Shown here piece after piece: positions 5,521 through 35,704 of a DNA stretch of 64,000 bases. This stretch comes from Amoebophrya sp. A120 (taxonomy: Eukaryota > Protista > Dinoflagellata), in NCBI GenBank assembly GCA_905178155.1, contig CAJINV010000001.1, positions 8,569,642 through 8,633,641 on the forward strand. The letters are read 5' to 3'. The notes under the pieces are model-generated. The model saw only the letters and a program-made list of their open reading frames with translations. It searched no databases and was not told the DNA's origin. Numbering within the stretch: the stretch's first letter is position 1; each line of letters begins with the position of its first letter. The translations under genes and the position numbers were made by a program.

Positions 5521-6849
5521 GCAGTAGATTGAATTGGTCGTTTTTTCTATGAGCGTTTGTAATGTAAGTATACGGTTTGATATCCGCATTCCGCAGTCGC
5601 AATCCCCATTCTCACTATACATTTAGAATTATAATTCCAAAATGTCTGGGCCGACGAGACGTGTAGTCCGCGGCCCAAGTTATGTGTAAAGAAAAAGCTA
5701 CCCAGAAAAACACTGTATCTGCTCCCATGCAGCGAGAGTACAAAAGCAACAAGATCCTACCACCAAGACCGCGTATTATACCCGTTCCACGGTCAAGAAT
5801 ATTTCAGTTTGCGACAAAAGAAATATATTGCCTTTTGACACCGCGTTACTGACATGTTCCGTTCAGCTTGCACACATCGAAATCAGTTCCTGTTCGCTTC
5901 TGAATCCAGGAGGAAATAAAACTGTTTCTGTACGGCAAGCGCGGCAGTTCGAAAGTCGTCGTGGTTTGTTTTGCTTTTTTTCATGTGCACTCTCAACCTT
6001 TGTGGAAATTTTTCATTCCACCGAGGCGGGACCCTTACGGGCGAATTCGCCTCTACCCAGCGAGGGAGCATTGTGACTATTAGTCTGCAAAAAGAGTAAG
6101 GTATTTTTTTTTCTAAGCCAACTTCTGACAAAGACTGACTCTGACAAACGTAAAACATCTGCTATATGGCCGGCGTGGGAGTTAGGGGTGCCTGACTTTT
6201 GCGCTGAGCCCGCCGAGCGTGACGACGTCGCTGGAGCACCCTTAAGGTTCAAGCACGCCAACCCCTTCGGCTCCGACAGCTCTTTTGTATATTACGTTTC
6301 CGCTGCTCCGTCAGTGTGCTACGTACTCAGAAAAAAGTGCGTGTCCATGCCGTGCTGGTTCGTAAGTTACGTAGATCGACATGACAAGGCTCGTCCGCGG
6401 AGTCTTGCTTGAGTTGTTAACTTCCTTCTCGCCTACCTGCCTTGCCTTCTGGCACCGAACTGGAAACCGTTTGGACGCTGAGACCGCGCACTACGATGGT
6501 GCACGGTGGAAGTGCATCACTTGCCCAAGCTTCCGCGTTTCTCCGGTTGGAGAAAGATTTTCGGAGTTCCAGTAGAGCACGGAACTGCCGTACGAGATGC
6601 GAAGCGCTCCGGATGAGAAAATGAAGAACACGACGCGACCACGCTGTGGCATTCGCGCACACTATCTCATCTGCTCTTCGTGGATGCCTGAGCTTTTTTG
6701 TATCGCGTTGATTCTAGAAGTAGATACGACAGGCCTTCTTGTTGCGCCACCTAGGTACAAGTAATAGTCGTTAGCCCGAGTCGGAGCCATTATCAAAAGA
6801 AATTATCTTTTCTGCAACGAAGACGAGCTCTCTGATTGCGCATTAACCT

Positions 6850-9800
6850 TATCACAGGTACTGACTGTCTTTTTCATCTAACGAAGAAGAACCGGCTCTC
6901 CTATTCCTGGTATTGAGATTACCTTGTTCTTCTCCCTTGTTTTTGTATTATGATTCTGCCACTACTGATTTGTTAACGTTCAAGGACACTGAAAAAAGGC
7001 AGACCAGCTCTTCCGCAGGAATCTTATCAGTAGAAGCGCCGTCATGTTGGTACGTGCATGCTGTGAATGTAACTAATCTGCTGAAGTTCGCCTTTTCTCT
7101 CGGAAATTCAAATTTGAACAAGTGCAGCTACACGAGCGACCAGAGCGCGCTGGACTCGTACCACTGCGAGCTGGAAACCTGGACTCCGCGCATCCGGCCG
7201 CACACGAGTGACCTCTTTTTGCTTACGATCGGAAGATGCCGCGTCGCGCGCTACGTGCCCACTTTCCTGTCCTACCTCCTGCCGTCGCAGTACGAAGCCG
7301 CTGCGCAGTTGCTGTGGCATGGCGGCGCTTCCTTTGATACTCGGGATGACGCACAGACTCTACACCTAACAAAGTGGAGGGACGACTACACCGCCACGAG
7401 CGAAAGCGCTAACCGGAGGTGCGCGAGGTACGGGAGAGAGTTCTGAGCTACGTTTCTGCTGCTGGTCTGCACGAGAATCGGAGAAAGTCAAAAGGAAAAG
7501 CACGGGCTTGTAAGACTACTTTCATCGCCTCCCATGCCTACGCAGTAACGGAGTCTGCTTATCACGACACTAATGACAGGTGGCACAACGGCAGTGGCAG
7601 GGCCAGGAGCTACGACGTTTGTTTTGTCACCACTGTACCATACACGTGGAGGGCCGACGCGTTTAAAGTGCCCGGCTACAAGATTGGAAGGGACACAGGT
7701 GGACAGACGCGGTCGCGCATCACCATTTCCCTACGTTGTATAGCTGTCTACGTGCTCTAATCATTGATGCTTGGATTTATTCTCTATCTCGATCGCTATC
7801 TTGATAAACAGTTCGAGGCCGTCCTTGTCGTGTTCGTTTTACAAGTAAAGGACAAAGCTAAATTTGGTAGCCAGCCGGCTCTACGTCTTACAACTGACAC
7901 CAAAACAGAAAAAAGCCCGAGCTGTTTTTTTCGTGTTGATTTCGGTACAGGTACGGACTACAGCCTGGATCATTCAGCGAAGCACGGCCCTCCCTGGTAT
8001 TGCTCTTCTAGCCTGCACTACGCGGAGATCGGGAGCGCGGACTTTTTCCATGCGTCGCTCAAGAACATTGGAGCAGCGAGCTCTTTCGCAGGAGTCCAAT
8101 CTGTGGACGGTATTCGGTCACATTATCTTGGCTACTATTGGTGGACGCGTGACCATTTTTCTATCTGAGTTGTTCTAGGTGCAGCAAAAGCAAATCTCTG
8201 TGAAGCCTCGTGGTGCTACCTCCGAGGGACAACGAAGAGCCCATGTCATCTTATCAAACAAAGTGGGTCATCGTCATCGCTTTTGCAACTGCTTACGCAA
8301 TAACCTCATCGCAGTCACTGGCCGTCTTTTTCATCCGGTCACGAAGAACCGGCTTTCCTATCCGTGGTATCGAAATTGTTTTGGCCGCCTTGCTCTCCCA
8401 GCGAAGACCTGGCATTATGATGCTCTAACGACTTTGTCAAAGGACACTGAAACAAGAGCAGCCGCCAGCCCTTCCGCATGAGGCAAATCAATAGTGTAGA
8501 AGCGCCGATATGGTGTGGTGTGCAAGCTGTGAATGCAATGAAGTAAATCGCTAAAGTTCGCCTTTTCTCTTGGAAATCGGAATAGGTGCAGCTGCATGAG
8601 CGACCAGGAGGCGCTGGAATCATACCACTGCGAGCTGGAAGCCTGGACATCGCGCACCCGGCGCCACACGAATGCCCTCTTCTTTATCACGGTCGGGGGT
8701 GGACGCCGCTTCGCGCACTACAACGTTTCTAGATTCCTGCCCTACCTCGTCCCGCCGTGGCAGTACGAAACCGCTGCGCTGTTGAATTGTCACGCCGGCG
8801 CCGCCTTTCGTACTGGACAGGACATGATGCAGACGCCGACGCTGACAAAGTGGATGGACAGCACCACTGTGAGCGAGAGCGCTAGTAGGATTTTTGCGAG
8901 GTACAGAGGAAGTTTCTTAGTGACGTTTCTCCTGATGAGCTTTCCGGGAACTGGACATGAAAATCAGAAAGAAAAGCGCGATCTGGTAGAGGTGATGTGC
9001 CTGCTGGGGAAGAAGTAGTGTAGGACTCCCCTCACAATATTACTCACAGGCTGGAGCCAAAGGATGGCAAGAGCAGCGACGTTTTCTATGTCGACGGAGA
9101 GCGTGTTTATGTACCGCTACCAGTGCCAGACACACGGCAGAGAAAAAGCGTCGATGCGCTCTCTCACGAGCTACGCAAAAATGCCACGGACCAAAACAAG
9201 CGGACACGTTTTCCAGTTGGTGTTTGGTCACACGGAGTTAAGCACCCAAGTACTAATTCTACCTACTACGTCTACGGAGTTTGACCGTCTTCCGGTGCAT
9301 GTGCATTCTTTCATCTGGCGACGAGTCAAAAATGTTGAAGAAAGTAAAACCGCAACTCCCTTTGCAATTTGATTTGAGTTTGACCCTTCGCTATTACAGG
9401 GGCCGATCGGCTATTTCACCAAACGACTAGGGCTGGCCACCTTCTCTGGATATGGTCCGCCACGTTTCCGCACCGCTTGCGTTTCGAGTGCCATCCCGTA
9501 GACGACCTACTGGCGAACGTGCTGGACAGCTGTCGCTTCGGCTTCTCAAAGCACCTGGCCGGCCACTGTCGGGAGGAGTTCAGCAAAGATTGGCAGCACT
9601 GCAGCTGGGGCATTATTTGTGAAACAAAAATTTGGACTAGAGGCCTTGCGAAGCCGGCGCATGTCTATAGTCGCTGCATTTTGCACCTCGCGGAGATTAC
9701 ACCACCAGAAGACCCGGCTTTTTTTGGTTCTGGGACCGAAGAAAATAACGGCTCCGCCACGGTGTGCATGGTACTTAGTTTTAGATGCTGACTTAGTTAT

Positions 9801-16583: not shown

Positions 16584-19500
16584 ATGAGCCCCGTCCATGC
16601 CATGTGCAGGTCGTTTATTAGCCTGTCCCTGCTCCTTCGCCACACCTCCGGCGCCTCGTGGTTTGGGTTTGAGGACAGTGCGGCGAAGCGCGACGATGGC
16701 TCCCCGCAGCGAAAAGCGCAGGTTCGGGCTTTTTTCCGCGACATGGATGAAGTCAACGAGGGCGTGCCGATGCTCGCCAAAATGGCCAAGATGGAGGAGC
16801 AAGCAGCTGCAGCGGGCCAGCGCGGTTCCTCAGAGGAACAACTGACGAAGTCGGCCGACTCGCTGAGCAGCACGGGGTCGCACGCCAGCACAACCGAGCA
16901 GAAAATTTTGTCGAAGGCCAGTGACATGCTGAAGCAGCGGCACGAGAAGCTCCGGACGCAGGGCGTGGCTTTGCCCGACCACCAGCAGCAGAAGCGGGGT
17001 CTGTTCTGTGCGCACGAGAACACAGCGGCGTGGAAGAAGAGGATGTTCGAGTCCGAAGATGTATACGACGAGAAGCATATCAAATGTAAAAATGTCTGGG
17101 TCTGGAAGAATGCAACTTGTCATGCTAAATCTGAAGCATGCAAAAATCTGTGTTGCATGATTACCAAAAGTCGCCCAGTTTTGACCAAGTCGGGAGGCAG
17201 TTTCTCATGCAGGATAGGCATGAGAAAGATCGCACAGAATCTGTCATGCTAGGTCCTGCATTCCAGACCTCATGGGTCATGGAAAAGCTGCATGACAAAT
17301 CGCGCACTCTTCCAGACCCAGACATTTTTACATTTGATAAAGCAGGCCGAGAAGTTTCTCGGCGCCACGCTCGAGGGCGGACTGCAGGCGGATCTCTACC
17401 CGCACGTAGATTTCTTTCACCTGGTGCACGCCAAAGCCTTCAATTGGCAGGGCCTGGCTTGGAAGATGCCGAAAATCGCTTTCAAAATCCGACACCAGCC
17501 GGGAAGCAAACTGTCCATTAGCAGCGCAACCTCTTCGCCCGGAACAAGTTCCCCCGGCACGACCGCGGCAGCCGACGTCTGCCAGTTTGAGCGAGCACCC
17601 TCCGCAGCGCCAGTGTACGAGTACTTCTCCGGGGTGCAGATGTACCATTTAAAAATGTCAACCAAAGTGGAAGTGGAGGTAGGAATTAGATTTCTTTTGT
17701 CGCTTCTTGTGCTGCATCAAGAGTTGCTTCGCTTCTACTAGAAGGTAGTTCCACGAAATTTTATACAGTGTCTCTTTATAATCTTGATCGTTGTTTCTCT
17801 TCGACAAACCGTCACACTACATATCAGTTTTTCGTCGAAAACGCGGACTCGTTGCAGAAGATGGAGGACGCCGCGTGGAATCTGTACAATCGGGAGTGGG
17901 GCGGCTTCGACTACACGCCTGCGCAGTCGGCGTCTGAAGACCGCCGAGAACAACAACAGCAAAACGCCGACTCTTTTTTCGCCCCCAACCTGGTCGACGA
18001 CGACGACGACGAGCGGCCCGCTGTCACCTCGACCGCCGGCCGCACGCCGACAGAGCGGGGCTTGCTGCACTTTTTCCACGAGGCGGCGAAGCATTTTCTA
18101 CCGCGCGTGGATGAGGACAGCCTGGACTTGATGAGGCGTGCGAGCGACGCGGAGCTGGAGCGGAGCCTTTTAGATGGATTCAGTTCGGCCACGCGGCAGT
18201 TCGCCAGCGCCCTGGCGAAGGACAACAAGGCAACGCCGAACGCGGGCCTGAGCATCGCGAAGTTCGACATTCGGTTCACCGCTCTCACCCCCTTCCCCTA
18301 CAACTCGTGGTTCGACCCGCAGGCGTATCAAATGTAAAAATGTCTGGGTCTGGAAGAATGCAACTTGTGATGCTAACTTTGGATTCTAAAAAAATCTGTA
18401 TTGCATGACCAGCAAGAGGCGCCCAGTTTGTGCTACGCGGGGAGAGCATTTGTCATGCGGGATAGGCATCAGGAACGCCTCTAGAAATATGTGATGCTAG
18501 ATCATGCATTACAGACATCCTGAGTCATGCAAAATATGCATGACCCCACTTTTCCATGCAGGACTTCGGGGACCCCACTTTTCCAAGGTTCTTGGTTGTG
18601 GATGGTTCCTCGAGGTCTGGCTGCGGCGATCTAGTTGGGCGTATTACGTACACCATGCCTGCTGCTGTTGTCGGACTTTCATTTCTGCACGCTTGAGATC
18701 TTCACTATCCTGCTGCTCCTCTAGTTCTACCGGTGAACATCATGGGACTATACCGTTTCCCTGCGGTTTTCGATGTAGAGCGTCGGCGGCCGCCGATGCA
18801 CGTGTAGATGGCGGTGGTGTTGCCCCTGCTGACGTTGATCCGCCCGCACACTGATCTCCTTCGTCCCGTACTACCACTGTCGGGCTCTACTGCTGGTGCG
18901 GATGCGCCTTCATCTCCGAACAGTTACGACTTGGAGTGGTGTGAAGCTCCAGCTGCCTGGGCGAAACTGCGGCTGTCGGCGTGTGGCCACCGGCGTGTGA
19001 TGGTGATTCCGGGGATTTCCTGCGACGTGGCCATTTTCTACGGAAGCTGACCGGCCTGTGTTCCGATTCCTAAATGTCGGCTCCCGAACGTGCCCGCTTC
19101 CGTCGTTTTCGCTTCTCCACCTCGGTTCCTGCATTTTCTCCCCTCCGTCTTACATTCGTGCTCCGGCTCCTGCTCCTCCGTATTCCGCAGAGTTTACTGA
19201 TTCAGATAGAACTTACGTAGTCCACTTCTAATTATTATAAATATATTACTTTACTTTTAGCCCCCGACAGTGGGAAGAAAAAGAGGAATAAGGGAGCGGT
19301 CGGGGCTGACTCACAGAAACCGGGCGCGACGGGAGGTGGCAAGGGCAGCACAGGAGCCGATGCTGACACGGCAGCCTCCGCATCTGCCAGTGCAGCAAAG
19401 AGTCCGGCCGCGGGCTCGAGCTCGTCGTCATCCAACGCTCGACCGCGCCAGGTAGTGGTGAAGAAGTCGGGTGTGGACTTAGGCCGAGTGCTGCGGAGTG

Positions 19501-22500
19501 GATTGTTAATGCAGGGGAAGAAGCTGAATTTCCAATAAAGACGTCAAGATGTGTGCGTGCACGCCGAACTCGACTACCTACTGATGGAAAGTGGCGAGTC
19601 ATGACCTGAGTTTTTTTTTACAAGTTGACAGAGAAGTTTTTTTGTTCGACCATCGGAAACGAAGACTTTAATTCGAACCAGCAACGGGGGCGACGCTCTA
19701 GATCGAAGTGTACGATAGCCAGGAAGTTATACGATCGGGCGCAGGAAACCCGCTGCGGGGGGGGCTTACCAAAAGAAGAAAAAAGAACTATCGCGAATGA
19801 CGGAAGTTGTGTTGTCTCTCTCTCTGCCAAGGAACATATCGATGATTTTTTATCTTTCTGTTGCACTGCAAGACCGAATTCGAATTGTGTGAAGCTGAAG
19901 TTGAAGTTGACGGTCGAGGAGCTTTAGCCCAGACGCAGTGCGACAGACTAGAGGGGCGGGGGTGCTGGAGGCTAGAAAGTTGTTGTTTGTGGTCTAGTTG
20001 ACGTGACGTCGCGGTGAGATTGCCTGCAGCAAGGAGCATTGCAGGAGAGAGACCGGGTTGTTTGAAGTGATTAGACCAGTGACCGGATAAACCTGGTCGG
20101 GCGCGTGGAAGGCCAGCCACGTTGCTTTTTGCAGGCAATCGCATTACTATCGAAAAGAAGAGCTTTTTTGTGAAGATTTCCTACTACACCTGATCACCCA
20201 GCCCAGAATTCCGAGCCTCGCGGTTGGAGGGCCGCGCGGCATACGTGGAAATAACTGGAAGACCGTTTTTTGTGTTCGACGAAGATCTCTGAAGACCCAC
20301 CAAGAGATCAAAGCGAGCCGATTTTGACAATAAGAAGATCGGAGGTTCCTAAAATGTTTACCGCCCCTACACCGTGCCCACCCGCAGAAGCCCCCGCAGC
20401 GGGGAGGAACCTAGCTGCAGGCGGCAGCGATGCCGGGACGGAGGAACCGTCCCGAGTCCGGCGCAGGGTACAAGCAGTACATAAGCTACGAATCGGAACC
20501 CTCAATGTACTCACACTGGGGGAAAGGGGTGACAGCGGAATTAAATCGGTTGAGGCAGAATGCCTACTGCGGGATGCCAGGGCACGTAATTTGGACGTAG
20601 TAGCAACACAAGAAAGCCGGGTGACGGAGTGGATCAACGGGGAAAAGTATGCTGAGTGCGTGCTATATGGGGGCGGGGCGTGGAAAAACGCAGTAGGGGC
20701 GGCAGTCGGAGGACTGTTGTTCTTGATCCGGGCCAACCTGGAGGTGGTGGATTACGATGCCGAACAGTGGGGAAGACGTGGGCGTTTATCCCTTCGCACG
20801 CCGCAAGGTCAGCGGATCCACATCCACGGGTGCTACGCCCCCACCGATGTTGCCGATGCCGGGGCAAAAGATGACTTTTGGAACCGAGTGGAGCAAAAAG
20901 TCTCGGCTCATGGCAACAGGGACATCGTGATCGCCATGGGAGACTGGAATGCGGAGATGGCGGGCGGTCCACAGCGCGAGCTGATTGCCGCCGGTCTCCC
21001 GTACACGGTGGGCCCATGTGGATTGACCTCAGATTTTGCCCGCGAGTCGGACAACTCCGCGCGTCTGCAGGCTTTGGCATCGTCGGCCGAGCTTGTAGAC
21101 ATATCCTCCCTTTTTCAAAAACCGTGGTCGAGGCGGTATACCTTCGAAGGCTCTTGGGCCGGGCGAAGCAGGAGGAAGCGCGAATACGACCGAATTCTCA
21201 TCTCCTGGCGCCACCGGGGCTTCGTGCGAGGCTTTCAAGTGCACGGCAACACCTACACCCATAGCGACCACCGCTTGGTGGTTGCGGAGCTGTGCCTGAG
21301 TGTAGCAAAAAAGCCGAGGAAGCCCGGAGGGGTGAGCAGCTGGATCCGGACGAAGCAGGCTGCTGAGGACACCAGCAAGGAGTTGGAGAAAATCTTCGAT
21401 GTTGGGGTCGTAACAGAGGGGATCGAGTCCGGGGCGAGAAGCACGGACGAGTGGTGGGTGGAGTTTGAAGAAGCTCTGGCTGCCACCATCGACAAATTAA
21501 GCAAAAAGGCGGAGGTGAAACGGGGACCGCGAAAACCCTGGATCACCGAGAAGACATGGGCAAAAATCGAGGAACGACGAAAGGCGATGGAAAAGGGGGG
21601 CCGGGACGCAAAGAAGCGGGTAAGCAGGCTCGGAAGGGCTGTTAGAGCCTGCGTCAAGGAGGACAAGCTCGCCTGGGTCAAGGACAAGCTGGAAGAGCTA
21701 CGCAAGGCCGACAATTCCGGCAACTCCCGTGCGGTTTTCGAGGTTGTCAGGCAGCTGGCAGGCAAGGCCCGGAAGCCAATGCAGGAGCTGCCGGGGCCTC
21801 CGGAAATGTGGACAGCTTTCTGGGGGAAAATTTTCGGCGAGCCCCGCCCCGAACCGGCCGAAGAAGCCAAGAGCACCCTGAGCTACAGAAAGTGCGAAGA
21901 GGCGCTTCTGAAAGAAGACCGACCGCAGTGGTGTGGCAATTGGGAAGTCGCGCCAACCGATTCAGAAATCGACGAAGCCCTGCGCGGGCTGAAGGCGGGC
22001 AAGGCCTTTGCAGGGGTAGCACCGGCGGAGCTTATACGCGACTGCGCACTCGCGCGTGCTGTGGTCGCGTCGCTTGTCCGCCGGGTTTTCCGGGGAGAGG
22101 AAGTCCCCGAAGCCTGGGGGCAGGCGGTGCTCACGATGCTCCACAAAAAGGGCGACAAAAGTCAGGCAAAGAACTACCGGCCGATTGCTTTGCTAACATT
22201 TGGCGAAAAGTTGCTAGGCCTCATAATCCTGAAACGGATAGAAACCGAAGCGGCGGCGACAATCGACAAAAGGCAAAAGGGGTGCACGCGCGGACTCAGC
22301 TGCAGGCATGGGGTCTTCCAGATCCTGCGCGACATGGAAAAATGCAAAAGGGAAGGACGCCGGGCGTACCTCGGCTTCGCCGACTTCCTGAAGGCGTTTG
22401 ACAGTCTCAGCTGGGCGGTCATGTATAAGGTTCTCCGACGCCAGGGGCTGCCTGAATACATCGGCCAAGTCGTGCGCAGCATGTACGATGGCCGCGCTAC

Positions 22501-25500
22501 GGTCTGCATCCGGCTTGCACGGGACCGCTACACCAAGCACATCAAGCAGCGGGCAGGCATAAGGCAGGGCAGTTCGCTGTCCCCGCTTGTGTTTGCCATC
22601 GTTCTTGATTTCGCAATCACGCAGTTTGCTGGGGTGATGGAAAGCGAAAAACGGTGGTCCAGCGCGCAGGCCAGAGGGTTCGCCATGGGGCTGCTTGGGT
22701 TTGTAGACGACCTGGTGGTGAAGACCGGCACCGAGGAAGACGCAAAGTTTGCAGTCCGGGAACTGGCAGGGGCTTGCCGGTTCGTCGGGCTGGAGCTTAA
22801 CGCGGACAAGGGAAAAACCGAGGTGATGGTTGTCAACCAGCCCAGCAGGGACAGAAAAAACGAACACGCGATGACAGAGCGATGCGTCATACCAGAGGAA
22901 GAGGGGGTCGCAACCACCGAGGGCACACTAGTAGAGTGGGACGGGGTGGACTTGCGCAAAGAGTTTAGAGACGCAGCGGCGCAGGTGTGCACCAGGCGCA
23001 TGGGGGACCTGAGCCCAACCCATTTGTTGATATGGGATGACGGCCACTACAATGTGGTAAAGATGAAGGCCTCCGGTTGGGTGATCCTGGACAACGGGAA
23101 GGCCATGCGGCTTACCCGCCTGGGGCGCCGCGAGTACATCCTCGAGAAGCACAACGAACACCGGTGCCCGCGGTGTGGGGATGTGTTGGAGGATGCAAAG
23201 GCGCTGAGGTATCACATCGCGACCGGGTTCTGCAGGAAGGACAAAACGATCCACGAGCAGAGAACCCTCAGGGTGGCGCGGGTGGTCGAGCAAAAGAAAA
23301 AAGCCGAAAAGGAGGCCCCGGGGGTAGAGCCGGTCGACATCTGGCACGACGGTAAACAGATCGCAGCGGTGGCGCGCTTCGTATACCTAGGAACAGAAAT
23401 CGACCGGAACGCAACTACTTCGTCGGAAACCCGGCGGCGTTGTGCCATGGCGCTTAGCGTGGTGCGGTCGCTGTGGAAAATCTGGCGGGACAGGGACATC
23501 CCGAAACACCTGAAGGCCGCGCTGTATCGCTCGCTCTGTATCAGCGTGGCCCTCTACAACGCCGAAACCTGGGCAACCACGGAAGCGGACGAACAGACGC
23601 TGCGAAACTTCCAAAGGCAGGCGCTCAGGTACATCCTCGGCCTGTGGGAGTGGCAGGACGCGCCGCCACGGGCTGAGATGTGTAAGGCGCTGGGGGTGCA
23701 GACCATAGAGACGGAGCTTCGCGAAAAACGAATAGCCTGGATGGCTCACGCCGCAAGAGATCCACACGGGGAAGGGTCTATTACCCGCATCGAGAACGAG
23801 ATACGCGAAAAGACGCGATGGGGAAATCTTGCAGCTGCCGATCTCGACCACTACCGGGTCGAGCTCGGCGACCTGAAGGCGCAAAAACCAACAGGGGCGG
23901 TAGTCCGAGAAATGCTGGCGAAGCGTCGGCCGTATGCTACGGCCCGACGGGAAACGAAAAAGACAGGGCCAGCGCCGGGGCAGCCGTCCAAAAAGGCCAA
24001 GGAAATGCAGGACGAAAGGCGCCAGCGGCTAGCAAAGCAGCGGGAAGAGCAAGCGCAAGCAGCACAGGCCGTCGTAGATGCCTTGTCGGGGAAAAAATGG
24101 AGGCCATCAGATGCCCGGGCAGGTTTTTGGGAACTGGAAGATGACCCGCAGTGGGTTTTTGAGGTGAGCGAGGTCTTCTTCTGTGAAAATACGGGCAGGG
24201 AAGAGGTCAGTGTAGCGGGCATCTGGTTCCAGAAGGAAGATGATGGGACCTACATCCTGCGATAGGAACCCGATCCCGAGTGAAGGAAACAAAGACGATA
24301 GAAATGCACGCACGTCCACGATCCAAGCGACGACTTCAGCCTACAAGAACTACTTTAACTGAAACAGGACAATGCGTTTGAACTGAACTGAACTGAACTT
24401 ATGCGCAGACAGCCGAAGACTTATTTTATTTGCTCGAGGCCTGCGCCCCTCGATCTGCTTTTTACTCTTAATCTATATGCTGGCACCCCGGCCTGCACTC
24501 CGGTATCCAGCTCCAACGACATTTTACCCGGCTGCTGTTATCTCCGCGTCAATCTACTTTACGGGCCTGCTCTCCCGCTTTTCATTTACCCTCTAGCCCC
24601 TGGTGGTTCACCAGATTCGGGCCGGGACTTCTTTACCTAGCGCTGCCGCGACGCACACCGACATGGACGCGTAGTACCTTAATCCTGTCGCACATATCTG
24701 CTTCACCTGTTTCAACCCTACGGGGGGGAGGCCTGCATTCCTCCTTACTAGACACCCTTGTTCCCTACTTCTCGTTTCCGCCGGTCGCGCATGTGCGATG
24801 TTGCCCGCTCGGAGTTTTCTGTTTTCCATGCGACTCCGCAGCTGTGTATAAACCTTTTGGTCATGACATGGTCAGATTTTGCGCATGACTGGGCACACTC
24901 ACATCCGAGATCGCTGGGGCGGGTGGGGGGTCCGAGCCAAAAAAAAAAGGTCTTTGTGGCGTTTTGGTAGTTTAGGTGCAAAATATGCATGACAAACCTG
25001 GTAACCTTCCAGACCCAGACATTTTTACATTTGATAAGGCGCGGCCGGTCCCCCGGGTGGAGTTCGACGAGATCGACATGAGCCCCGTCCTGTTTGTATC
25101 CTGAGTAAAAACGTACCCACACCAGAGTTGTAATGCAGATTTGCAAAGACAGGAAGACTTGTAATGCGCATCCCCATGAGAGCCATTTCCAGTCGTGTTT
25201 TGGAATTTGTGATGCTGTGAACAGGATGAGCAGCTGGATTTGTGATGCGGCTGCACTTGCTAACCTGCACTACACTGCAGAGCTCAACTTGTCATGCGTG
25301 GCTCACAAAACTCCTAGGTTTGTGTTGCAAAATCCTCATCCTAACTCTGGTGTGGGTACGTTTTTACTCAGGATAGTTTGCGAGGGACATGCGGTCCGCA
25401 CTGTCCTTCAACCTGCTGCTCGCCGCCCACAACCTGATCGAGCAGCAGGTGGCCGCGTTCGTAGCGCAGCGGCTGGACAACGCTGCGGTGGAGGAACCGA

Positions 25501-25760
25501 ACCCCATGAACGACCACAGCAGCAGCCACTGGGGGACGGGATTCGTGCTGAAGATGAAAGATGTCGACGGTTCGGACAACGGTTGCACGGGGGGCAGTAG
25601 TACCAGCCGCGCGATGATGCAGACGCCGTGCGATCCTTACGCCGACTCCTCGAGCGGCAGCCACTACTACTTGTCCAGGCTGCACTGCCCCTTGCCCTGT
25701 TGCGGAAGCCGTCGGGGTCCGCAACTGGAGCCGCTGCCGATTGCGACTATCAAGGTGTGA
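16584..25760 (+). CDS. Putative secreted hypothetical protein, split by three introners (one carrying a LINE) and one ordinary intron
   Basis: Signal-peptide-like N-terminus (MCRSFISLSLLLRHTSGA). Frame is continuous after removing each element plus one TSD: VYDEKQAEKFLG (17078-17339), WFDPQARPVPRVEFDEIDMSPVL (18326-25036), VLFARDMRSALSFNLL (25097-25375). A further intron lies at ~17633-17828; 3' end may extend beyond 25760. Confidence 0.75.
17078..17339 (+). mobile_element. Introner family A copy 1 (262 bp, TSD AAGCA)
   Basis: 32-bp TIR TATCAAATGTAAAAATGTCTGGGTCTGGAAGA and its reverse complement at the right end; AAGCA at 17073-17077 and 17340-17344; removal restores the ORF. Confidence 0.95.
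20270..24265 (+). CDS. Non-LTR retrotransposon ORF: APE endonuclease + reverse transcriptase (RTE-like) with an internal C2HC zinc finger
   Basis: APE motifs IGTLNV, DVVATQE, YAPT, MGDWNA, YDRIL, SDH; RT motifs LHKKGD..NYRPIAL, DFLKAFDS, GIRQGSSLSP, FVDD, GLELN..KTE, FVYLG; uninterrupted 1331-aa frame (likely ATG at 20353). Confidence 0.95.
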   Translation: MCSTKISEDPPRDQSEPILTIRRSEVPKMFTAPTPCPPAEAPAAGRNLAAGGSDAGTEEPSRVRRRVQAVHKLRIGTLNVLTLGERGDSGIKSVEAECLLRDARARNLDVVATQESRVTEWINGEKYAECVLYGGGAWKNAVGAAVGGLLFLIRANLEVVDYDAEQWGRRGRLSLRTPQGQRIHIHGCYAPTDVADAGAKDDFWNRVEQKVSAHGNRDIVIAMGDWNAEMAGGPQRELIAAGLPYTVGPCGLTSDFARESDNSARLQALASSAELVDISSLFQKPWSRRYTFEGSWAGRSRRKREYDRILISWRHRGFVRGFQVHGNTYTHSDHRLVVAELCLSVAKKPRKPGGVSSWIRTKQAAEDTSKELEKIFDVGVVTEGIESGARSTDEWWVEFEEALAATIDKLSKKAEVKRGPRKPWITEKTWAKIEERRKAMEKGGRDAKKRVSRLGRAVRACVKEDKLAWVKDKLEELRKADNSGNSRAVFEVVRQLAGKARKPMQELPGPPEMWTAFWGKIFGEPRPEPAEEAKSTLSYRKCEEALLKEDRPQWCGNWEVAPTDSEIDEALRGLKAGKAFAGVAPAELIRDCALARAVVASLVRRVFRGEEVPEAWGQAVLTMLHKKGDKSQAKNYRPIALLTFGEKLLGLIILKRIETEAAATIDKRQKGCTRGLSCRHGVFQILRDMEKCKREGRRAYLGFADFLKAFDSLSWAVMYKVLRRQGLPEYIGQVVRSMYDGRATVCIRLARDRYTKHIKQRAGIRQGSSLSPLVFAIVLDFAITQFAGVMESEKRWSSAQARGFAMGLLGFVDDLVVKTGTEEDAKFAVRELAGACRFVGLELNADKGKTEVMVVNQPSRDRKNEHAMTERCVIPEEEGVATTEGTLVEWDGVDLRKEFRDAAAQVCTRRMGDLSPTHLLIWDDGHYNVVKMKASGWVILDNGKAMRLTRLGRREYILEKHNEHRCPRCGDVLEDAKALRYHIATGFCRKDKTIHEQRTLRVARVVEQKKKAEKEAPGVEPVDIWHDGKQIAAVARFVYLGTEIDRNATTSSETRRRCAMALSVVRSLWKIWRDRDIPKHLKAALYRSLCISVALYNAETWATTEADEQTLRNFQRQALRYILGLWEWQDAPPRAEMCKALGVQTIETELREKRIAWMAHAARDPHGEGSITRIENEIREKTRWGNLAAADLDHYRVELGDLKAQKPTGAVVREMLAKRRPYATARRETKKTGPAPGQPSKKAKEMQDERRQRLAKQREEQAQAAQAVVDALSGKKWRPSDARAGFWELEDDPQWVFEVSEVFFCENTGREEVSVAGIWFQKEDDGTYILR
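24380..24399 (+). repeat. (GAACT)4 short tandem repeat, candidate LINE 3' tail
   Basis: Lies about 115 bp downstream of the RT ORF stop; RTE/L2-type elements often end in short tandem repeats. Confidence 0.6.
25097..25375 (+). mobile_element. Introner family B copy 1 (279 bp, TSD GTTTG)
   Basis: Perfect 33-bp TIR TATCCTGAGTAAAAACGTACCCACACCAGAGTT; GTTTG at 25092-25096 and 25376-25380; removal restores the ORF. Confidence 0.95.
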
Positions 25761-28279
25761 AGACGGGCCGAGTTGCTCCAGTGTTGTACTCCTCAACCAG
25801 AACCAGGCAGCAGCGAAAAATTTTGACCGATGGATCAGTTTTGTCGTATACTAAAGATGAAATACAGTGAATACAGTAGAATTATTCCGTAGTACTACGA
25901 AAACATCGTATTTGTCGACGTTTCACTAAATGAAAAGCCGTCAACATCTCGTAGAGTTTAGATCGAAGTTTGCATATGACTGTGTTTTCGACCGAGCAGC
26001 CGCTTCAGTCGTAGTACGAAAACAGAGTCGATATTCCCTTGCTGTGAATAACAACGAATCCCATTTGACATCCATAGAAAAGTCACGATGTGCCTCTTCT
26101 GCGAAACGATTATGTGCCGAACCAACCATCTACACCTACTTTAGAATAAGAAGATTGACAGCGAAATGTCAACTCAGTAGAGATCGTTCGACGCATGCGT
26201 TGTTCCTGTGTTTCGCATTGACCTGGAGTGCGATGTAAGCTAACGTCACTAAGGACCAAACAGTGCACATGCAACGAAGTGGGAGAGACTGAGAGAAAAA
26301 GAGTGACTCATTAACATGAGATGCACTGTGCAACACAGAAGTACGTAGGCAGCCTCGCCTGCTATCATAAACTAACGTTTTCACCGTTGCATGCAAAATA
26401 AGATAATCAAACAAAAACTCTGGACAGTGTGTAAAAGTGAGCCCAAGTCGATCCCTTTTTTATCTTCCGGTGCAAGATACCCATTGCCATTTATCCATAG
26501 TGGCTATGCGATCTTAAGCAGCTTTTTTTCAAAGCCTACTTTTTGTTTTTTCGGTGTGAAAAAAAATCTCTTGCATGTGATAGATTGTGTGCAGTTTTGT
26601 TCTTATGCGTAAACTCGGATGGTGACCTGCAGTAGCCTCGCTATTGACTTTTGAACGTTTGATGATTTGTGAACATTTTGGAGAACGAGAATTGATTCAC
26701 TGGAGCATTTCGTTTCTTTTGCGTCAGCAGGTTAACATTCATATGTGAAAGCAGCGACTACCAAGAAGTAAAAAGATGCACGTGTTGGTCGAGTTTAACG
26801 TTTTCTGGTCGTTAGTCGGCATGCTTCGGATGTACCGAGAAGATTCTTTTCGTAACGACCGTTGGTCCTACGCCCGCGAGTCGGGGGTGCATATCATCGA
26901 GGGCTCCCAGGTGGAGGAAGAGGATCTTCGCTTGTGGTCCGGGATGTCCGGGGTTTCATCGCCCAGTGGGACGCAGACACTATTGTGTGCAGCGTGACAA
27001 CGACCGATACAGTGGCAGACGAAAGGGCTACATGCAAACGCGACGGAAACGTCCAGGGAACAGGTCTAGTATGGCCTGGGCGAGTGTGGCACGCGCAGAG
27101 GCGGCTGCGACCAACTCTGGGGTGTCAACATCATAAGTAGATGATAGTGCAGTTATCCCACTCGATATTTGAATGTAATACTTTTACTTCAGCGATCTAC
27201 ATCTACTTCAGTGTCAGTGAAGATAGTCACAGTGTCATCGACATGTTCGTAAAAATGTTGCTCACTTCTAAACAAACATTTTCTTGGGTACTCCTGTTTT
27301 GACATTTGGACATTTTAGCCATCGAGAAAAACTCTGAACACGTGCCATCGTTTTGAATGACCAGAGCTCTAGTTTTGTGAATCAAAAATTCTGCACCCCG
27401 GGAGCAGGAGTCAATGACGCTGCGGCCATGGCGGTTTCATGCAGATTCACGTCGTGCTAATGATTGTCGTGCTCATCATATTTGCCGTAGGTTGCGATCG
27501 GAGACGAAAGAGTGAGAAGGGAGGAAGTGGTGCTAGACGAGAGGTTTTTATTCGAGAGAGTGCTAGAGAAGTTTTTATTCGAGAGGGAGGTGGAAGCTAC
27601 TGCTACATGCAACAAAAGTCATGCAACAGAGCGGAGTGGACGAGAGATTTCTTCGATTTCGAGATAGTGTTGCAAATTGAACACGTACTCACTTTGAGTG
27701 CGCACGATGTTTTTTCGTCAAATCGAGATTGGTTTTTCCTCGATGGAGTCGGCGTTGTCGCTGGATTCCTTGAGTTTTCGTATGGCTGATCAACCTTGTG
27801 GCCGGCGTCTTTGGTCTACAACCGTTTCATCAGACAGAAATAAAATCGGAGCAGGCGGTCCTAGTACCGAATTTCCCTTTCGAATTCATCACCCTTGCAT
27901 GAGCATGTTCCTCCCGCCTCCCTCTACTTTCACCACTAAATTTGTTTCGAATTCTTGTGCTCTGCCCTAGTTCACGGATCTTTGTTTGGCATTTTTTTGT
28001 AAGGCCGCAAGACGGCGGCAAGCGAATTTCGACTTCCTTGCACAACTTGAACTGATTTTACCGTCTTTTCGGCACCTCCTTCAAAGCGGAGGCACTACTT
28101 GCTTCTTCTTACCCATTGTACATACGTTTGCGTTCTTTACGACGTCCGCTGTCGGACAGACGTGACTGGGCGTCTTGGCGACAAGTTATAACATTTCTCG
28201 CACAACGAACTGCGAATCCGACCAAGAAACGAGTTGAACCGCCGCGTAGCGATACACCCGGACCACGGAACACGCTTAG

Positions 28280-31200: not shown

Positions 31201-34200
31201 CCACGACCAGAAGGATGAAGGCGCGCGAGAGCGGTTGCAAATCGCACGAGAGCAGGATGAATTCGAGAGACTGAATCGGGAAATCGCAGAAAGCCGGCGG
31301 CTCCACGAAATTGAAGAGCCGGATACGCCATCGCTGTCGAGAGGACACGGTCTCGCGCGAGGATGCAACGAGCAAGACATCACTCTGAGTGCCCTGAGCG
31401 GGGGCAAGTGCGCTAGCGAGGAGACAGAGCAAGCATTTTCCCGTTCGTTGCTGGTCGAGAACGGGGTCGAGTTCCTGCTTGAAGACTTCTACGTGGAAAT
31501 TTTGCCGCCGTCCAACCTCCAGTCCAACCAAACGCGGCTCCGGGAGTTCCAGACCGCCCTGCAAACGCGCCTGACCAACGGGCTGCCGCGCGTGACGAAC
31601 ACCATTCTGGAGAACGTCCTGCACCGGCGCAAGACGCTGAAGTCCACGACGCTGAGTCTGGAGGAGTTTTACGGACAGAACTCGCAGCACATCCCCATGC
31701 GCATCTACTACCAACTCGAGGGGAAGTCGCCCGGGTCGCAGTCGGACCACCCGCACCACACCGAGGACCACTTCACAGACGACAGCCTGCTGAAGGCCGA
31801 TTACAGCCACGCGGCGGACGACTTGTCCATTTCGTTTCCGAAGCCCTTCATGCAGGAGTTTTGCCAGGAGAAACTGTCCTTCAACGGCTACCGTGGCTGC
31901 CAGTCCTTCACGCTCGGGGGGTCGCAGTGCCAGTCCTGGGATCGCCAGTGGCCGCGGGCGCACACGTTCTCTCCTGTGTACGACCCGCTCGGGGATCCCT
32001 TCAACAGCAACCCATCCCGCAAAAGCGCCAACCTCTACTCCATCATGCTCCGCAACAACTTTTGCGCAAACCCCGATGGCCGCGAACCCGGGTCGTCGTC
32101 AAAAGTGCTCTACACGAGTGAGGCGATCTGGTACTACTTATTGCGAGAGCTGTGCTTTTTTTGTTTTGTTGACAATGTAAGCATGACACAGACGCTCTTC
32201 ACACCGACTGGCGCACTGTGCTTCCTTCTTGTTAAAAATTTGTGAGTACTACTGAACAACAGTATAAAACAGAGAGTTGCATCACGAGTGGTCGGTTGAC
32301 TGTGGTTCGTGGAGCTGCTGTGAACAAGCGAGTGTCAATATGTTGGATTCTCAAATAAAATTTACGTGCCTTGAAATCCAAACAGGTGCTACACAAACGA
32401 TCAGAACGGTCCGGAATGGGACTACTGCGAGCCGAAGACGCGGAATCCGCCGATCCGCTGCCACAAGAGCGACCCCTTCTTCCTCATGGTCGGGGGTCGG
32501 CGGTTCACAGGCTACATGCACAACTCACTGTCCTACCTCGCACCGTCGCAGTACGAGACCACCGTGCTGATGCGCAACGGCATCGTTCCCTTTCGCGTCG
32601 GCGAAGCCACACTGAACCTGACGCTGTGGAAAGACAACTACGCAAGTGAGAACCTCAACAGAAGCTGTGCGAGGTACAAGCGTACTCTAGAGTGTCACTG
32701 TTTATTTGCGGAGCTGCTGCCCGGGGCTCGGAATCAATTTATTACAGTGTATAAGAAATAGAAAACAAAAAAAATTATAGAGCAATTTTACGTAGCAGTA
32801 GCTAGTACCTCTTATGCCAAAGGTTCGAGGAAAAAAATCCGTTGATAATATTCTACTCAAACTCACAGTTGGGACAGCGACTATAACGGGAGCTTCGACA
32901 TTTTCTGTGTCGACACGGTATCAGACTTGCAGCGGAACGAGGACGTGAAGGCACTCTCTTACGAGATACGCAACGCCACCGACGAGAACAAACGGATACG
33001 ATCGCGCATCTATATTCGGCCACACTGTAAGAAAGTAGTTCTACTTCAACCTACTTACCGACTTTTCAAAGTAACATACAGCATGACCAAGAATGACGAA
33101 ACCAGCGGCATAAGTAAACGAGAATGAGCGCTAGCACTCCTGCTCTTTAGATCGACTTTTAGCGGATTGATACTACAAATACAGGTACCGACCGGTTGTT
33201 TCACCCGACCAAGAACCACCTGCCCTGGATGTCGGGCGTGCGCTACACGTTCCATTTCCGCTTCGAAAGCGATCCCGTCGACCTGCCCACGAACGTCACG
33301 GACAACCGGCGTTTCGGGTTGTCGGAACACCTGACGGGTCAGTGTCGCGAGGAGTGCATGAAGCTGGGCTACTTCAAGTGCGGCGCGTTTGTCACGAAGC
33401 AGTGGCAGGACGGGCTGAACTTCACCGACCCGGAACAGGGGCTCTACAACTGCTACATCTTCCACCCAGAGGACCTCACGAAGGGCTTAGTGTCCATCGG
33501 TGCGGGCACCGATAACAAAAACGACGTCACGACGTGGATGGTAAAGATGTTCGGCGTTTTCTTTAGTTTTACGTATGTGACTTCTGTTCTTTCTTGTGCC
33601 TGTTTGGATGATGGATCTAGAGGCATCCGAGGGCACGCCTATGTATGAGGGAACATGCATCTCTTCAACTGTTGCACTAAACTAAGTAGCACGATGAACT
33701 GAGGACAATGAAAAGAAAAACTTCACACAGACCAAGAACGAGACCGTGTACAGGAGTGCCCGGTGGAACTATACCGAGGCCCCTCCCATCCACCAAAAGC
33801 CAGCGACCGACGACGGAGCGACGTTTTTTGAAAGCATGAAGATCGTGCTGGTCGGTCTGGGGTTCGTACTCGCGGCAGCGGTGATCTACTGGTGCGTGAA
33901 GCGGTATATCCTGAAGAATATGGAGCTTCGCCGTCGGGCCGCGGAAGGGAAGCTGGGCCTGAAGGACGGACTGGGCCTCGGCGGCGCAGGCACCGCGGGA
34001 AGCAACGGTACTCGTTTTTGCAGTGTATGGTCTTTTCTGTGTACAACGAACTTGAGAAAAGTTGTCAGCTGAAATTTTCTTTTTACAACTTCGCGGTGGT
34101 TGTGGTATCATTTGATTTGATTTTGCCCGAATTCTTGTGTGACAACACAACTTTCGACCCAAACTGTCCAGTTCCAACGCTTTCTGTGATGGCTCCGGTG

Positions 34201-35704
34201 ATGCGACGATCCAATGACCCGCGAACCGAGCCGGTTCGGCTGCCCGACCACGTGATCCACATTATCCTGTATAAAAACGTCCCCACACCAGAGTCAAGAT
34301 GGGAAATCTGCAACACAAATCCAAATGTTTTGGGAATCACGCATGACAGTCTTCTCGCTGAATTGTAGTGCTGGTTAGCAAGCACAGCCGCATTACTTAC
34401 AAAGCCGTCCCCTTGTCCTGTTTGCAGCATTACAAATTCCAAAACAGGATTGATTATGCCTCTCTTGGGGATGCGCATTACAAATGTTCCTGTCCTTGCA
34501 ATTCTGCATGACTGACAACTCTGGGGTGGGGACGTTTTTCATCAGGATCCACATGGACGCCGACGAACACCAGCGGGAAAAAGAAGCCCGTCGGGCCGGC
34601 CAGAAGGAGAGCCGCATCGGCAAGAAGTGGCGACCGAAGAGCGGGCCGGGGTCCGACGTACCGTTTGGCACCAATCCCGACCTGTGGCACGCCGGGTTCC
34701 AGGGCCGCGAGAGCCAGTTTCACCCGAGCACAGGCAGCGTCGGCGAGGCCGTTAGCCCTGCGAAGGCCCACTACGAGCGGAAAGTCAGTCCGCAGAAACG
34801 GACCGCTTGGTTGGACGAAACAGCGCCGGACATGATGATTGGTGCCGGCCGCGGCGTCGAGGACGCGGAGAAGCTGCGGCACTACAAGGAGCACCGCATA
34901 AAGAGCACAACCAAGCTAATGCAGCACTGCATGGACGATGATAACTTCGTAGGTGAGCAACAGCAGCACCAGCAGCAACACCAGCATCAGCCCATCCGGG
35001 TGGAGGACATGTCGCCGAGCCGAGCAAATAACGTTGCGGGGGTGAACCGCATAGGTCTGGCGGCAGCTGCGAATCCAGGCGGAATTGTGTTTGACAGCAA
35101 CGTGTTGGCGCACGCCGGCCACCACGACCCGCGCATGCTAGCGTCTCCCGCCCGCATTACGAACCCGAATGCCATTCCGGATAGTACCGGCCAGCTACAG
35201 CTGCAGCCGCGGCAAACCGGGGTCGCCGCCAGCGCCGCCGCGCCGCGGCTGTCCCCCGTGCTCAACAACAATCCCGCCCCCGTTGGACAGGCACGTACGC
35301 GCGCGGGCCAAACACCCACCGCAGCCGCGGGAAGTTGGTACACGAGCGTTGGTGGTGGCGACCAGACCGGTGTCGCGTACCCGCACCAACAAGGCGCATT
35401 TTCTGCCCATAATCGCAACAGTAACGCGGCCAATGCGCCGAGCTCCGTAAGTCCGGTTCGGCGCGCCAGTTTGAACGCGCCGGGATACGATATCAACAAC
35501 GTACGGATTTCGGAACTGGCCCCGAGCATGGGCGCCACACGCGCTGCCCGGTCGGCCTCCGCCGAAAGTCGCTACCTCGCTGCCCCCGGGGACTTCAACG
35601 TCGCGAACGGATCGATGAGAAATGCAGCCCGAGATTCCCGCTATGCGATGCAGCGGGACGCAATGTTTGGATCCGACTTCCTGGGCCGCTCGCAAGACGA
35701 TTGA
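28280..35704 (+). CDS. Large multi-exon single-pass membrane protein with PAN-like, sushi-like and kringle domains and a low-complexity cytoplasmic tail; first exon unresolved
   Basis: Sushi-like GARCTVKCQSGY..TTCRKEG; kringle YRGCQSFTLGGSQCQSWD..H..NNFCANPDG..IW|CYT..WDYC across GT-AG intron 32131-32385; TM IVLVGLGFVLAAAVIYWCV near 33842-33898; GT-AG intron 34008-34171 joins the tail in phase; introners at 29583 and 34263 excise in frame (DPAINVPAADAY; DHVIHMDADEH). Confidence 0.75.
29583..29849 (+). mobile_element. Introner family A copy 3 (267 bp, TSD TTAAC)
   Basis: 32-bp TIRs; TTAAC at 29578-29582 and 29850-29854; removal restores the ORF. Confidence 0.95.
34263..34549 (-). mobile_element. 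Introner family B copy 2 (287 bp, TSD CACAT), inverted relative to B1
   Basis: TATCCTGTATAAAAACGTCCCCACACCAGAGT ... ACTCTGGGGTGGGGACGTTTTTCATCAGGATC; CACAT at 34258-34262 and 34550-34554; interior matches the reverse complement of B1. Confidence 0.92.

Follow-up and report, generated by a model that had tools for sequence, protein, structure and literature searches.

The closest described relatives of the element studied here are the introners of Amoebophrya. As reported by Farhat et al. 2021 (PMC7789003), these are elements of about 250 bases with inverted repeats at their ends and direct repeats of 3–5 bases, and they are removed from the mRNA. We have analyzed a stretch of 64,000 nucleotides from Amoebophrya sp. 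A120 (contig CAJINV010000001.1, positions 8,569,642 to 8,633,641; this whole stretch is the window, numbered from its first letter), in which one such introner, copy 2 of a family that we call A, lies in an exon of a host gene and itself contains 6.4 kb of DNA with a long interspersed nuclear element (LINE). Copy 2 shares the properties just listed, and like the published A120 families it has a TAT start and a run of A ten bases in; the second TIR family of the window, B, fits the published introners as well. The reported terminal inverted repeats (TIRs) are 8–20 bp long, in comparison with 31 perfect base pairs in copy 2, and copy 2 differs in extending over 6.7 kb with a retroelement inside; the available part of that paper contains no nested case. 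We found no report of a LINE nested in an introner in the literature searched, whose coverage takes in few subscription papers.

A second report attributes A120 introners to both non-LTR and LTR (long terminal repeat) retrotransposons, and describes a TIR-flanked family with retro-like open reading frames (ORFs) (Gozashti et al. 2025, PMC12130899). Here, in contrast, the LINE and the TIR element form two distinct layers, each bearing its own duplication, and the intron is not defined by the LINE. Among LINEs, the Bov-B elements of the RTE clade have a single ORF for an apurinic/apyrimidinic-type endonuclease (APE) and a reverse transcriptase (RT), no ORF1, and a microsatellite tail (PMC13295347, PMC6007223); in cattle this tail is (CTGAA)3–5, and RTE elements integrate without fixed sites (PMC13295347). 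Target-specific APE elements are reported in the Tx1 and R1 clades, and hitting a repeat is a known survival strategy for them (PMC4640811). The element described here shares with Tx1 and R1 LINEs the APE endonuclease and residence in another repeat; it differs from them in having no ORF1, no match to zf-RVT, and, among the contigs listed, no further copy at its site.

Our reading of the locus, to which we give a probability of about 0.55, is that a single event of target-primed reverse transcription (TPRT) brought a read-through chimera into the introner, with no preference for introners, and that the intron is still spliced out whole. The locus demonstrates nested duplications of 5, 17, and 6 bp, an intact ORF, a spliced product, and flanks of a repeat, X, around a poly(A)-ended unit.

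The interrupted introner and its layers

18326–18544, no strand assigned: left part of family A introner copy 2 (TIR 18326–18356)
18528–18544, plus strand: 17-bp duplication, left copy
18545–18558, plus strand: filler of 14 bases (18542–18556 repeats 18571–18585)
18559–18618, plus strand: repeat X core of 60 bases, a hairpin, ending in the left AGGTCT (18613–18618)
18619–24947, plus strand: inner unit ending in poly(A), 6329 bp in length, with a single-copy interior
19209–19275, plus strand: putative 5′ boundary zone of the RTE-like core (candidate repeat GAACTTA)
20354–24265, plus strand: intact APE-RT ORF of 1303 amino acids (aa)
24379–24399, plus strand: (TGAAC)4 tail, 134 bases past the stop, with 4.2 units
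24709–24947, plus strand: multi-copy 3′ segment with the A-run (24939–24948); depth 128 over 24709–24842, or about 3 identical copies
24948–24953, plus strand: 6-bp duplication AGGTCT, right copy, directly after the A-run
24954–24976, plus strand: 23 bases continuing repeat X, the best match for two independent X loose ends
24977–24993, plus strand: 17-bp duplication, right copy; its first 3–4 bases also stand at the same place in X copies (microhomology)
24994–25036, no strand assigned: right part of introner copy 2 (TIR 25006–25036)

The nesting of an APE-RT element in an introner in an exon is real. The two TIRs of copy 2 are 100% complementary, the 5-bp duplication AGGCG stands outside them at 18321–18325 and 25037–25041, 6.7 kb apart, and the host frame joins across the element as WFDPQ-ARPVPRVEF. 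The matching duplication, the distance, and the joined frame had been claimed in an earlier note on this DNA, and every coordinate given there is upheld. The insert that the note described, 6432 bp (18545–24976) bracketed by the 17-bp direct repeat, is recovered exactly. Excising it together with one repeat does give a 262-bp element, as long as copy 1 of the family, and we find it colinear from end to end with the five other family A copies of the window, to which this comparison of six copies extends; its left 219 bases are 78–82% identical to four of the five. All six copies have a 5-bp duplication, and the other five are uninterrupted. Family A also has a very high summed depth in X1, a DNA run that is possibly the run underlying the assembly and whose depth is only a rough guide. 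Families A and B as recognized make up 4.2% of the window.

The same note placed the duplicated site on a conserved internal palindrome of the introner. The overlap holds: of the 21 bases of the palindrome, 17 fall in the 17-bp duplication, and copy 2 is among the two copies with perfect arms. The conservation holds only in part: the arms pair at 8/8 positions in two of the six family A copies, at 7/8, 6/8, and 5/8 in three, and are lost in one. By chance, a 17-bp duplication would overlap a given 21-bp window in a 262-bp element in about 15% of cases.

The insert is a composite and no simple LINE. It begins with the filler, 12 bases of which were templated by the insert's own sequence, with a 3-base microhomology to the target end. 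The X core that follows occurs elsewhere with different neighbors; it has no differences to record 9 of a second data set, X4, and its summed depth in X1 is that of about 9–10 single copies. Its hairpin on the plus strand, which contains G-U pairs, has a z-score of −2.8 (2 of 200 shuffles). We observe no differences over 57–60 bases of the core in copies whose flanks vary, and it is found in an RNA-type contig. A 28-base pattern from the core matched 0 metagenome stretches, and an Rfam scan gave two matches, both far under the cut-off. The supplementary file 3 of PMC12130899, one of 14 and with its long cells shortened, has 0 matches to the TIR motifs, the X motifs, or the word Amoebophrya; the family may be listed elsewhere there.

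What reveals the layering is the other end of the insert. In one X1 and one X4 contig, the letters after the X core find their best match among 12820 positions at 24954–24976, with 16/23 identical letters in both cases (over the first 16 letters, 14/16 and 13/16), versus only 5/23 and 6/23 against the letters from 18619 onward. Because the continuation of X matches there, and because AGGTCT stands on both sides, we conclude that the poly(A)-ended unit is embedded in a fragment of repeat X, and that both together sit inside the introner. The direct flanks of the unit are then 60 + 23 bases of X and not introner DNA. At the outer right junction the microhomology of 3–4 bases is judged from other copies of X.

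The depth of the insert interior in X1 is 44–51 in 14 of 17 bins, like that of the flanks, with long exact contigs; the three bins of higher depth reflect one relative at about 88–91% identity in the RT region. Within the 3′ segment, 24713–24748 and 24782–24836 are matched by diverged relatives, and 24709–24842 may be a 3′ end shared with a second retroposon family. Two candidates were dropped, namely a likeness of the A-run on the reverse strand to the spliced leader, and an HDV-like (hepatitis delta virus) ribozyme at the 5′ end, seen by eye only and with a 4-bp P1.

The host gene and the removal of a 6.7-kb intron

16584–17077, plus strand: host exon 1, from the Met
17078–17339, no strand assigned: copy 1 of the family A introner (262 bp), with the duplication AAGCA; it is removed by splicing and has no GT/GC..AG register
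17345–17678, plus strand: host exon 2
17679–17827, plus strand: canonical GT-AG intron of 149 bp, absent from the RNA-type contig
17828–18325, plus strand: host exon 3, with the left AGGCG as its last five bases
25042–25096, plus strand: host exon 4 of 55 bases, derived from the unlisted letters and the exact sum given below
25097–25375, no strand assigned: family B introner, duplication GTTTG, spliced out
25381–25760, plus strand: host exon 5, to the stop codon; the RNA-type contig extends to 26133

The main evidence for splicing comes from X5, which together with X4 represents one sample; that X4 and X5 are RNA is a guess made by software. Record 9 of X5 has 2051 letters, and its pieces 16667–17072, 17340–17676, 17826–18320, and 25376–26133 align with 0 differences. 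Between the last two pieces are 55 unlisted letters, and a five-exon model in which they are 25037–25091 sums to 2051. The contig is thus without four introns, one of them GT-AG, and the joined model is open for 558 codons. A public protein from the genus Amoebophrya, P0155, is identical to the 586-aa host model; P0155 is an annotation, possibly built on similar data, and is not fully independent of the X5 contig. A transcript joining 18325 to 25042, which the earlier note had named as worth looking for, is what the contig and P0155 both give, as each matches the five-exon model exactly. The host transcript loses all 6716 bases of this intron.

Could record 9 be a processed copy in the genome? 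In X1 an unbroken contig spans the GT-AG intron 17679–17827; for this reason we take record 9 to be like complementary DNA, with no processed DNA copy indicated. And since X4 has two contigs without differences in insert DNA that is single-copy in X1 (24289–24459 and 24631–24799), the sample behind X4 and X5 carries the insert. We regard it as very probable that the host gene is spliced across the whole insert-bearing introner. Two further RNA runs, X9 and X10, are uninformative on the locus: 177 and 4 reads were placed, 174 and 4 of them at 90–95% identity, nearly all in part. The 586-aa host protein has no Pfam family at the cut-off; its N-terminus is hydrophobic, and its own record is the sole match found.

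How such an intron is removed can be approached from its ends. The TIR duplex of copy 2 has a predicted energy of −50.5 kcal/mol, versus −21.9 and −24.7 kcal/mol for the best competitors inside the intron. Eight elements were checked for splice registers on both strands, and a GC..AG or GT..AG register is present in copy 2 alone, the other seven having none. Its GC..AG register lies inside its duplication (18323–25038). Copy 1 and the family B introner of the same gene are removed precisely; because both lack a canonical register, the introners do not depend on GT-AG. Pairing of the 31-bp TIRs is the route of removal that we consider most likely, and use of copy 2's GC..AG register is a tentative alternative with clearly less in its favor. 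The earlier note had suggested that TIR-defined splicing may still work over 6.7 kb; of this, precise splicing is borne out, and the role of the TIRs is something we infer, with the GC..AG register also present. That register may explain the tolerance of a 6.4-kb insert.

The TIRs of the copies at 17078–17339 and 18326–25036 are interchangeable (all pairings −50.5 kcal/mol), and the contig is without exon skipping, which suggests that TIRs pair first-come and co-transcriptionally. The length of the intron is no record, since annotated A120 introns reach 35 kb (Table 1 of PMC7789003, the available part of which does not state their type). According to the same source, U1 was not detected in Amoebophrya.

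Introners of family B (25097–25375, 34263–34549, and 42649–about 42930) also have a TAT start and 5-bp duplications, and their orientation varies by copy.

The clade of the retroelement core

The ORF of the core was claimed to be intact, and indeed it has 1303 aa, APE and RT motifs, and no internal stop. Pfam finds RVT_1 with an E-value of 1e-21 and Exo_endo_phos with an E-value of 0.004, which is below the cut-off of that family. The core probably ends close to its tail: contigs of relatives match 24355–24398, end at (TGAAC)n, and branch there, and the composition shifts at 24398–24426 and again at 19256–19275, the latter being a purine change-point. A duplication made by the core itself was sought, and none was above chance, including the candidate 7-bp GAACTTA at 19209 and 24395.

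Tx1-clade LINEs have two ORFs and a C-terminal zinc motif. The earlier note had suggested an analogy with this clade, which the features do not favor: there is no ORF1, zf-RVT has no match in the ORF or in any of the 20 relatives scanned, and the tail is RTE-like. The single ORF, the absence of ORF1, the tail of the five-base unit of Bov-B, and the absence of zf-RVT point to a core that is RTE-like and not Tx1-like, a placement made by features. The motifs LYNAETW and RIAWMAH are ones that we take to be RTE-like.

As compared with RTE and Bov-B elements, this one has a 1303-aa ORF into which about 170 aa are inserted after the RT, and 539 extra bases and poly(A) past the tail. The insertion stands between the RT and C-terminal motifs, carries a Cys/His motif (aa 938–960, 23165–23233), and is common to Amoebophrya and some relatives from marine metagenomes. 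The nearest proteins are from Amoebophrya (P0001 at 74%, P0003 at 44%; P0003–P0005 44–55%). Of 343 metagenome loci, the 80 retained are only 23–35% identical, with no blastn match to the element, and an Atlas search gave APE-RT clusters only. A search of the literature for DUF6451 as a clade marker found nothing.

Upstream of the ORF, the frames have no Pfam family at the cut-off and no tblastn match to 154 RT proteins. An open frame of 105 codons at 19221–19538, rich in Ala, Ser, and Gly, follows an AT-rich stretch ending in TTTTAG, and it could be a captured exon or a relic of an ORF1. In tblastn with the 154 RT proteins, no second LINE relic came up in the window (best E-value 0.005 outside the ORF), and the idea that the pyrimidine-rich flanks contain a decayed LINE on the minus strand is thus not supported.

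Origin of the insert and its meaning

The TPRT-like marks of the insertion are the 17-bp duplication, the filler, and the microhomology. In the sequence of events that we propose, an RTE-like LINE residing in a copy of repeat X elsewhere would have been extended on its 3′ side as far as a poly(A) site, and on its 5′ side as well. Read-through RNA from that X locus would have carried 60 bases of X ahead and 23 behind. This RNA would have been primed at the introner through the microhomology of 3–4 bases, and reverse transcription would have run until the foot of the hairpin in X, where the self-templated filler of 14 bases would have joined the end, leaving the 17-bp duplication. The insertion would have survived with the intron ends untouched and the whole intron lost from the host transcript.

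Several observations weigh against this account. A donor locus was looked for in X1, and none was found there. No contig bridges either junction among those listed, and the Tn-TA check fails to show the RTE signature, as the 17-bp duplication starts with T and has no T run 10 bases upstream. Both of the other identical copies of the 3′ segment start at 24709, a coincidence that independent 5′ truncations would rarely produce. Variants whose A-run lacks 1 and 3 bases remain aligned into the X letters, and indicate at least one further locus in which poly(A) meets X; such junctions fit either copying from read-through RNA or separate hits on X, and in neither is the introner involved. Three of the listed contig placements show the 17-bp motif twice per contig, and could mark places where other copies join introner-type motifs. 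They are most simply introners with the motif in tandem, and we have not scored them as junctions because the placement software chains short chance pieces (record 10 of X4, as an example, is not colinear). Finally, X5 record 11 (146 letters, depth 3.3) is exact on 18421–18527 and ends just before the 17-bp repeat. We read it as RNA of an introner with an empty site, for which a twin elsewhere, an insert-free allele, and a template jump would all account. For an identical twin, up to about 13 copies' depth in X1 shares the rarest diagnostic letter.

The best-surviving alternative, which we nevertheless hold to be unlikely, is stepwise: a piece of X would have landed in the introner, making the 17-bp duplication, and a poly(A) retroposon specific for the hairpin foot would have followed, making the 6-bp one, with the RTE core aboard or arriving later. 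It would account for the precise placement of the inner unit where the conserved hairpin has its 3′ foot, for the A-run variants with their additional junction, and for the X core and the 3′ segment both being at roughly 8–10 copies' depth, and LINEs specific for other transposons are known (PMC4640811). However, the specific elements of APE type known there are Tx1 and R1, not RTE; both runs contain uninterrupted copies of X; RNA of this locus's own intron could have templated the copies with the extra junctions; and three events are needed in one 262-bp element.

Less probable, and in our view doubtful, is the proposal of the earlier note, by which the LINE targets introners, its endonuclease reading the introner palindrome and the introners serving as a safe harbor. 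In its fullest form, which we consider as doubtful, an RTE-like family would home to the palindrome, the host promoter would make its RNA, and the excised intron would template new introner-primed copies. If true, this would be a LINE parasitizing an intron-making transposon, in a clade without known target specificity, and cost-free inside expressed genes. The duplication within a perfect-arm palindrome, the harmlessness of the site, and the three ambiguous contigs with the motif are what such targeting would lead one to expect. The A120 assembly is 17% introners and 40.6% coding DNA (PMC7789003), from which we compute that introners are about 29% of the non-coding DNA; one nested case therefore needs no targeting, and the overlap with the palindrome has its 15% by chance. 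Moreover, X lies on both sides of the poly(A)-ended unit, relatives end and branch at (TGAAC)n, and the five other family A copies in the window are intact. Of the 41 X1 contigs on 18521–25000, 16 are partial fits and only one runs past an end; among the flanks listed (12 of 30 loose ends and 16 of 58 pieces), none is a flank at 18545 or 24976, and there is no second copy in an introner. In X1 only one full-length copy is seen. With one full-length copy, flanks of X, an RTE-like core, and this base rate, the claim of targeting is left unsupported, without being refuted by the flanks listed, and the introner is likely a passive shelter, no demonstrated target.

An improbable origin is repair at the level of DNA, in which a staggered break at the palindrome would have been patched by a 6.4-kb donor copy with no RNA step. 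Both ends do fall inside X and not at element ends, with microhomology at both junctions, templated filler, and no tail at the outer 3′ end, but the clean 17-bp duplication is in the range of TPRT (PMC6007223), the patch is a whole unit with short flanks as RNA would give, and the donor is missing. That nothing is spliced across the insert, the assembly being chimeric or the RNA coming from an insert-free allele, is very improbable: record 11 and the lack of a listed bridging contig are in its favor, and against it are the nested exact duplications, the two flanks from one gene, the insert depth equal to flank depth in X1, the exact insert DNA in X4, and the 97 identical introner pairs of A120 (PMC7789003), by which record 11 can be a twin.

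Elsewhere in the window, a further repeat is present at 6832–7232 and 8289–8696, 73–80% alike and spaced by about 1460 bases, with a weaker third copy at 32371–32493.

Transposons nested in introns are common. What is new here is a precisely spliced introner stretched 25-fold, together with a layered chimeric retroelement. The locus is a natural experiment, in which an intron has been stretched 25-fold by foreign DNA on the same strand with a poly(A) run, and is still removed to the base, and in which no mis-pairing is seen between the TIRs of copy 2 and the identical ones of the neighboring copy. This points to introner removal being end-defined and tolerant of length, and the locus shows that neutral landing space within exons is created by introners.

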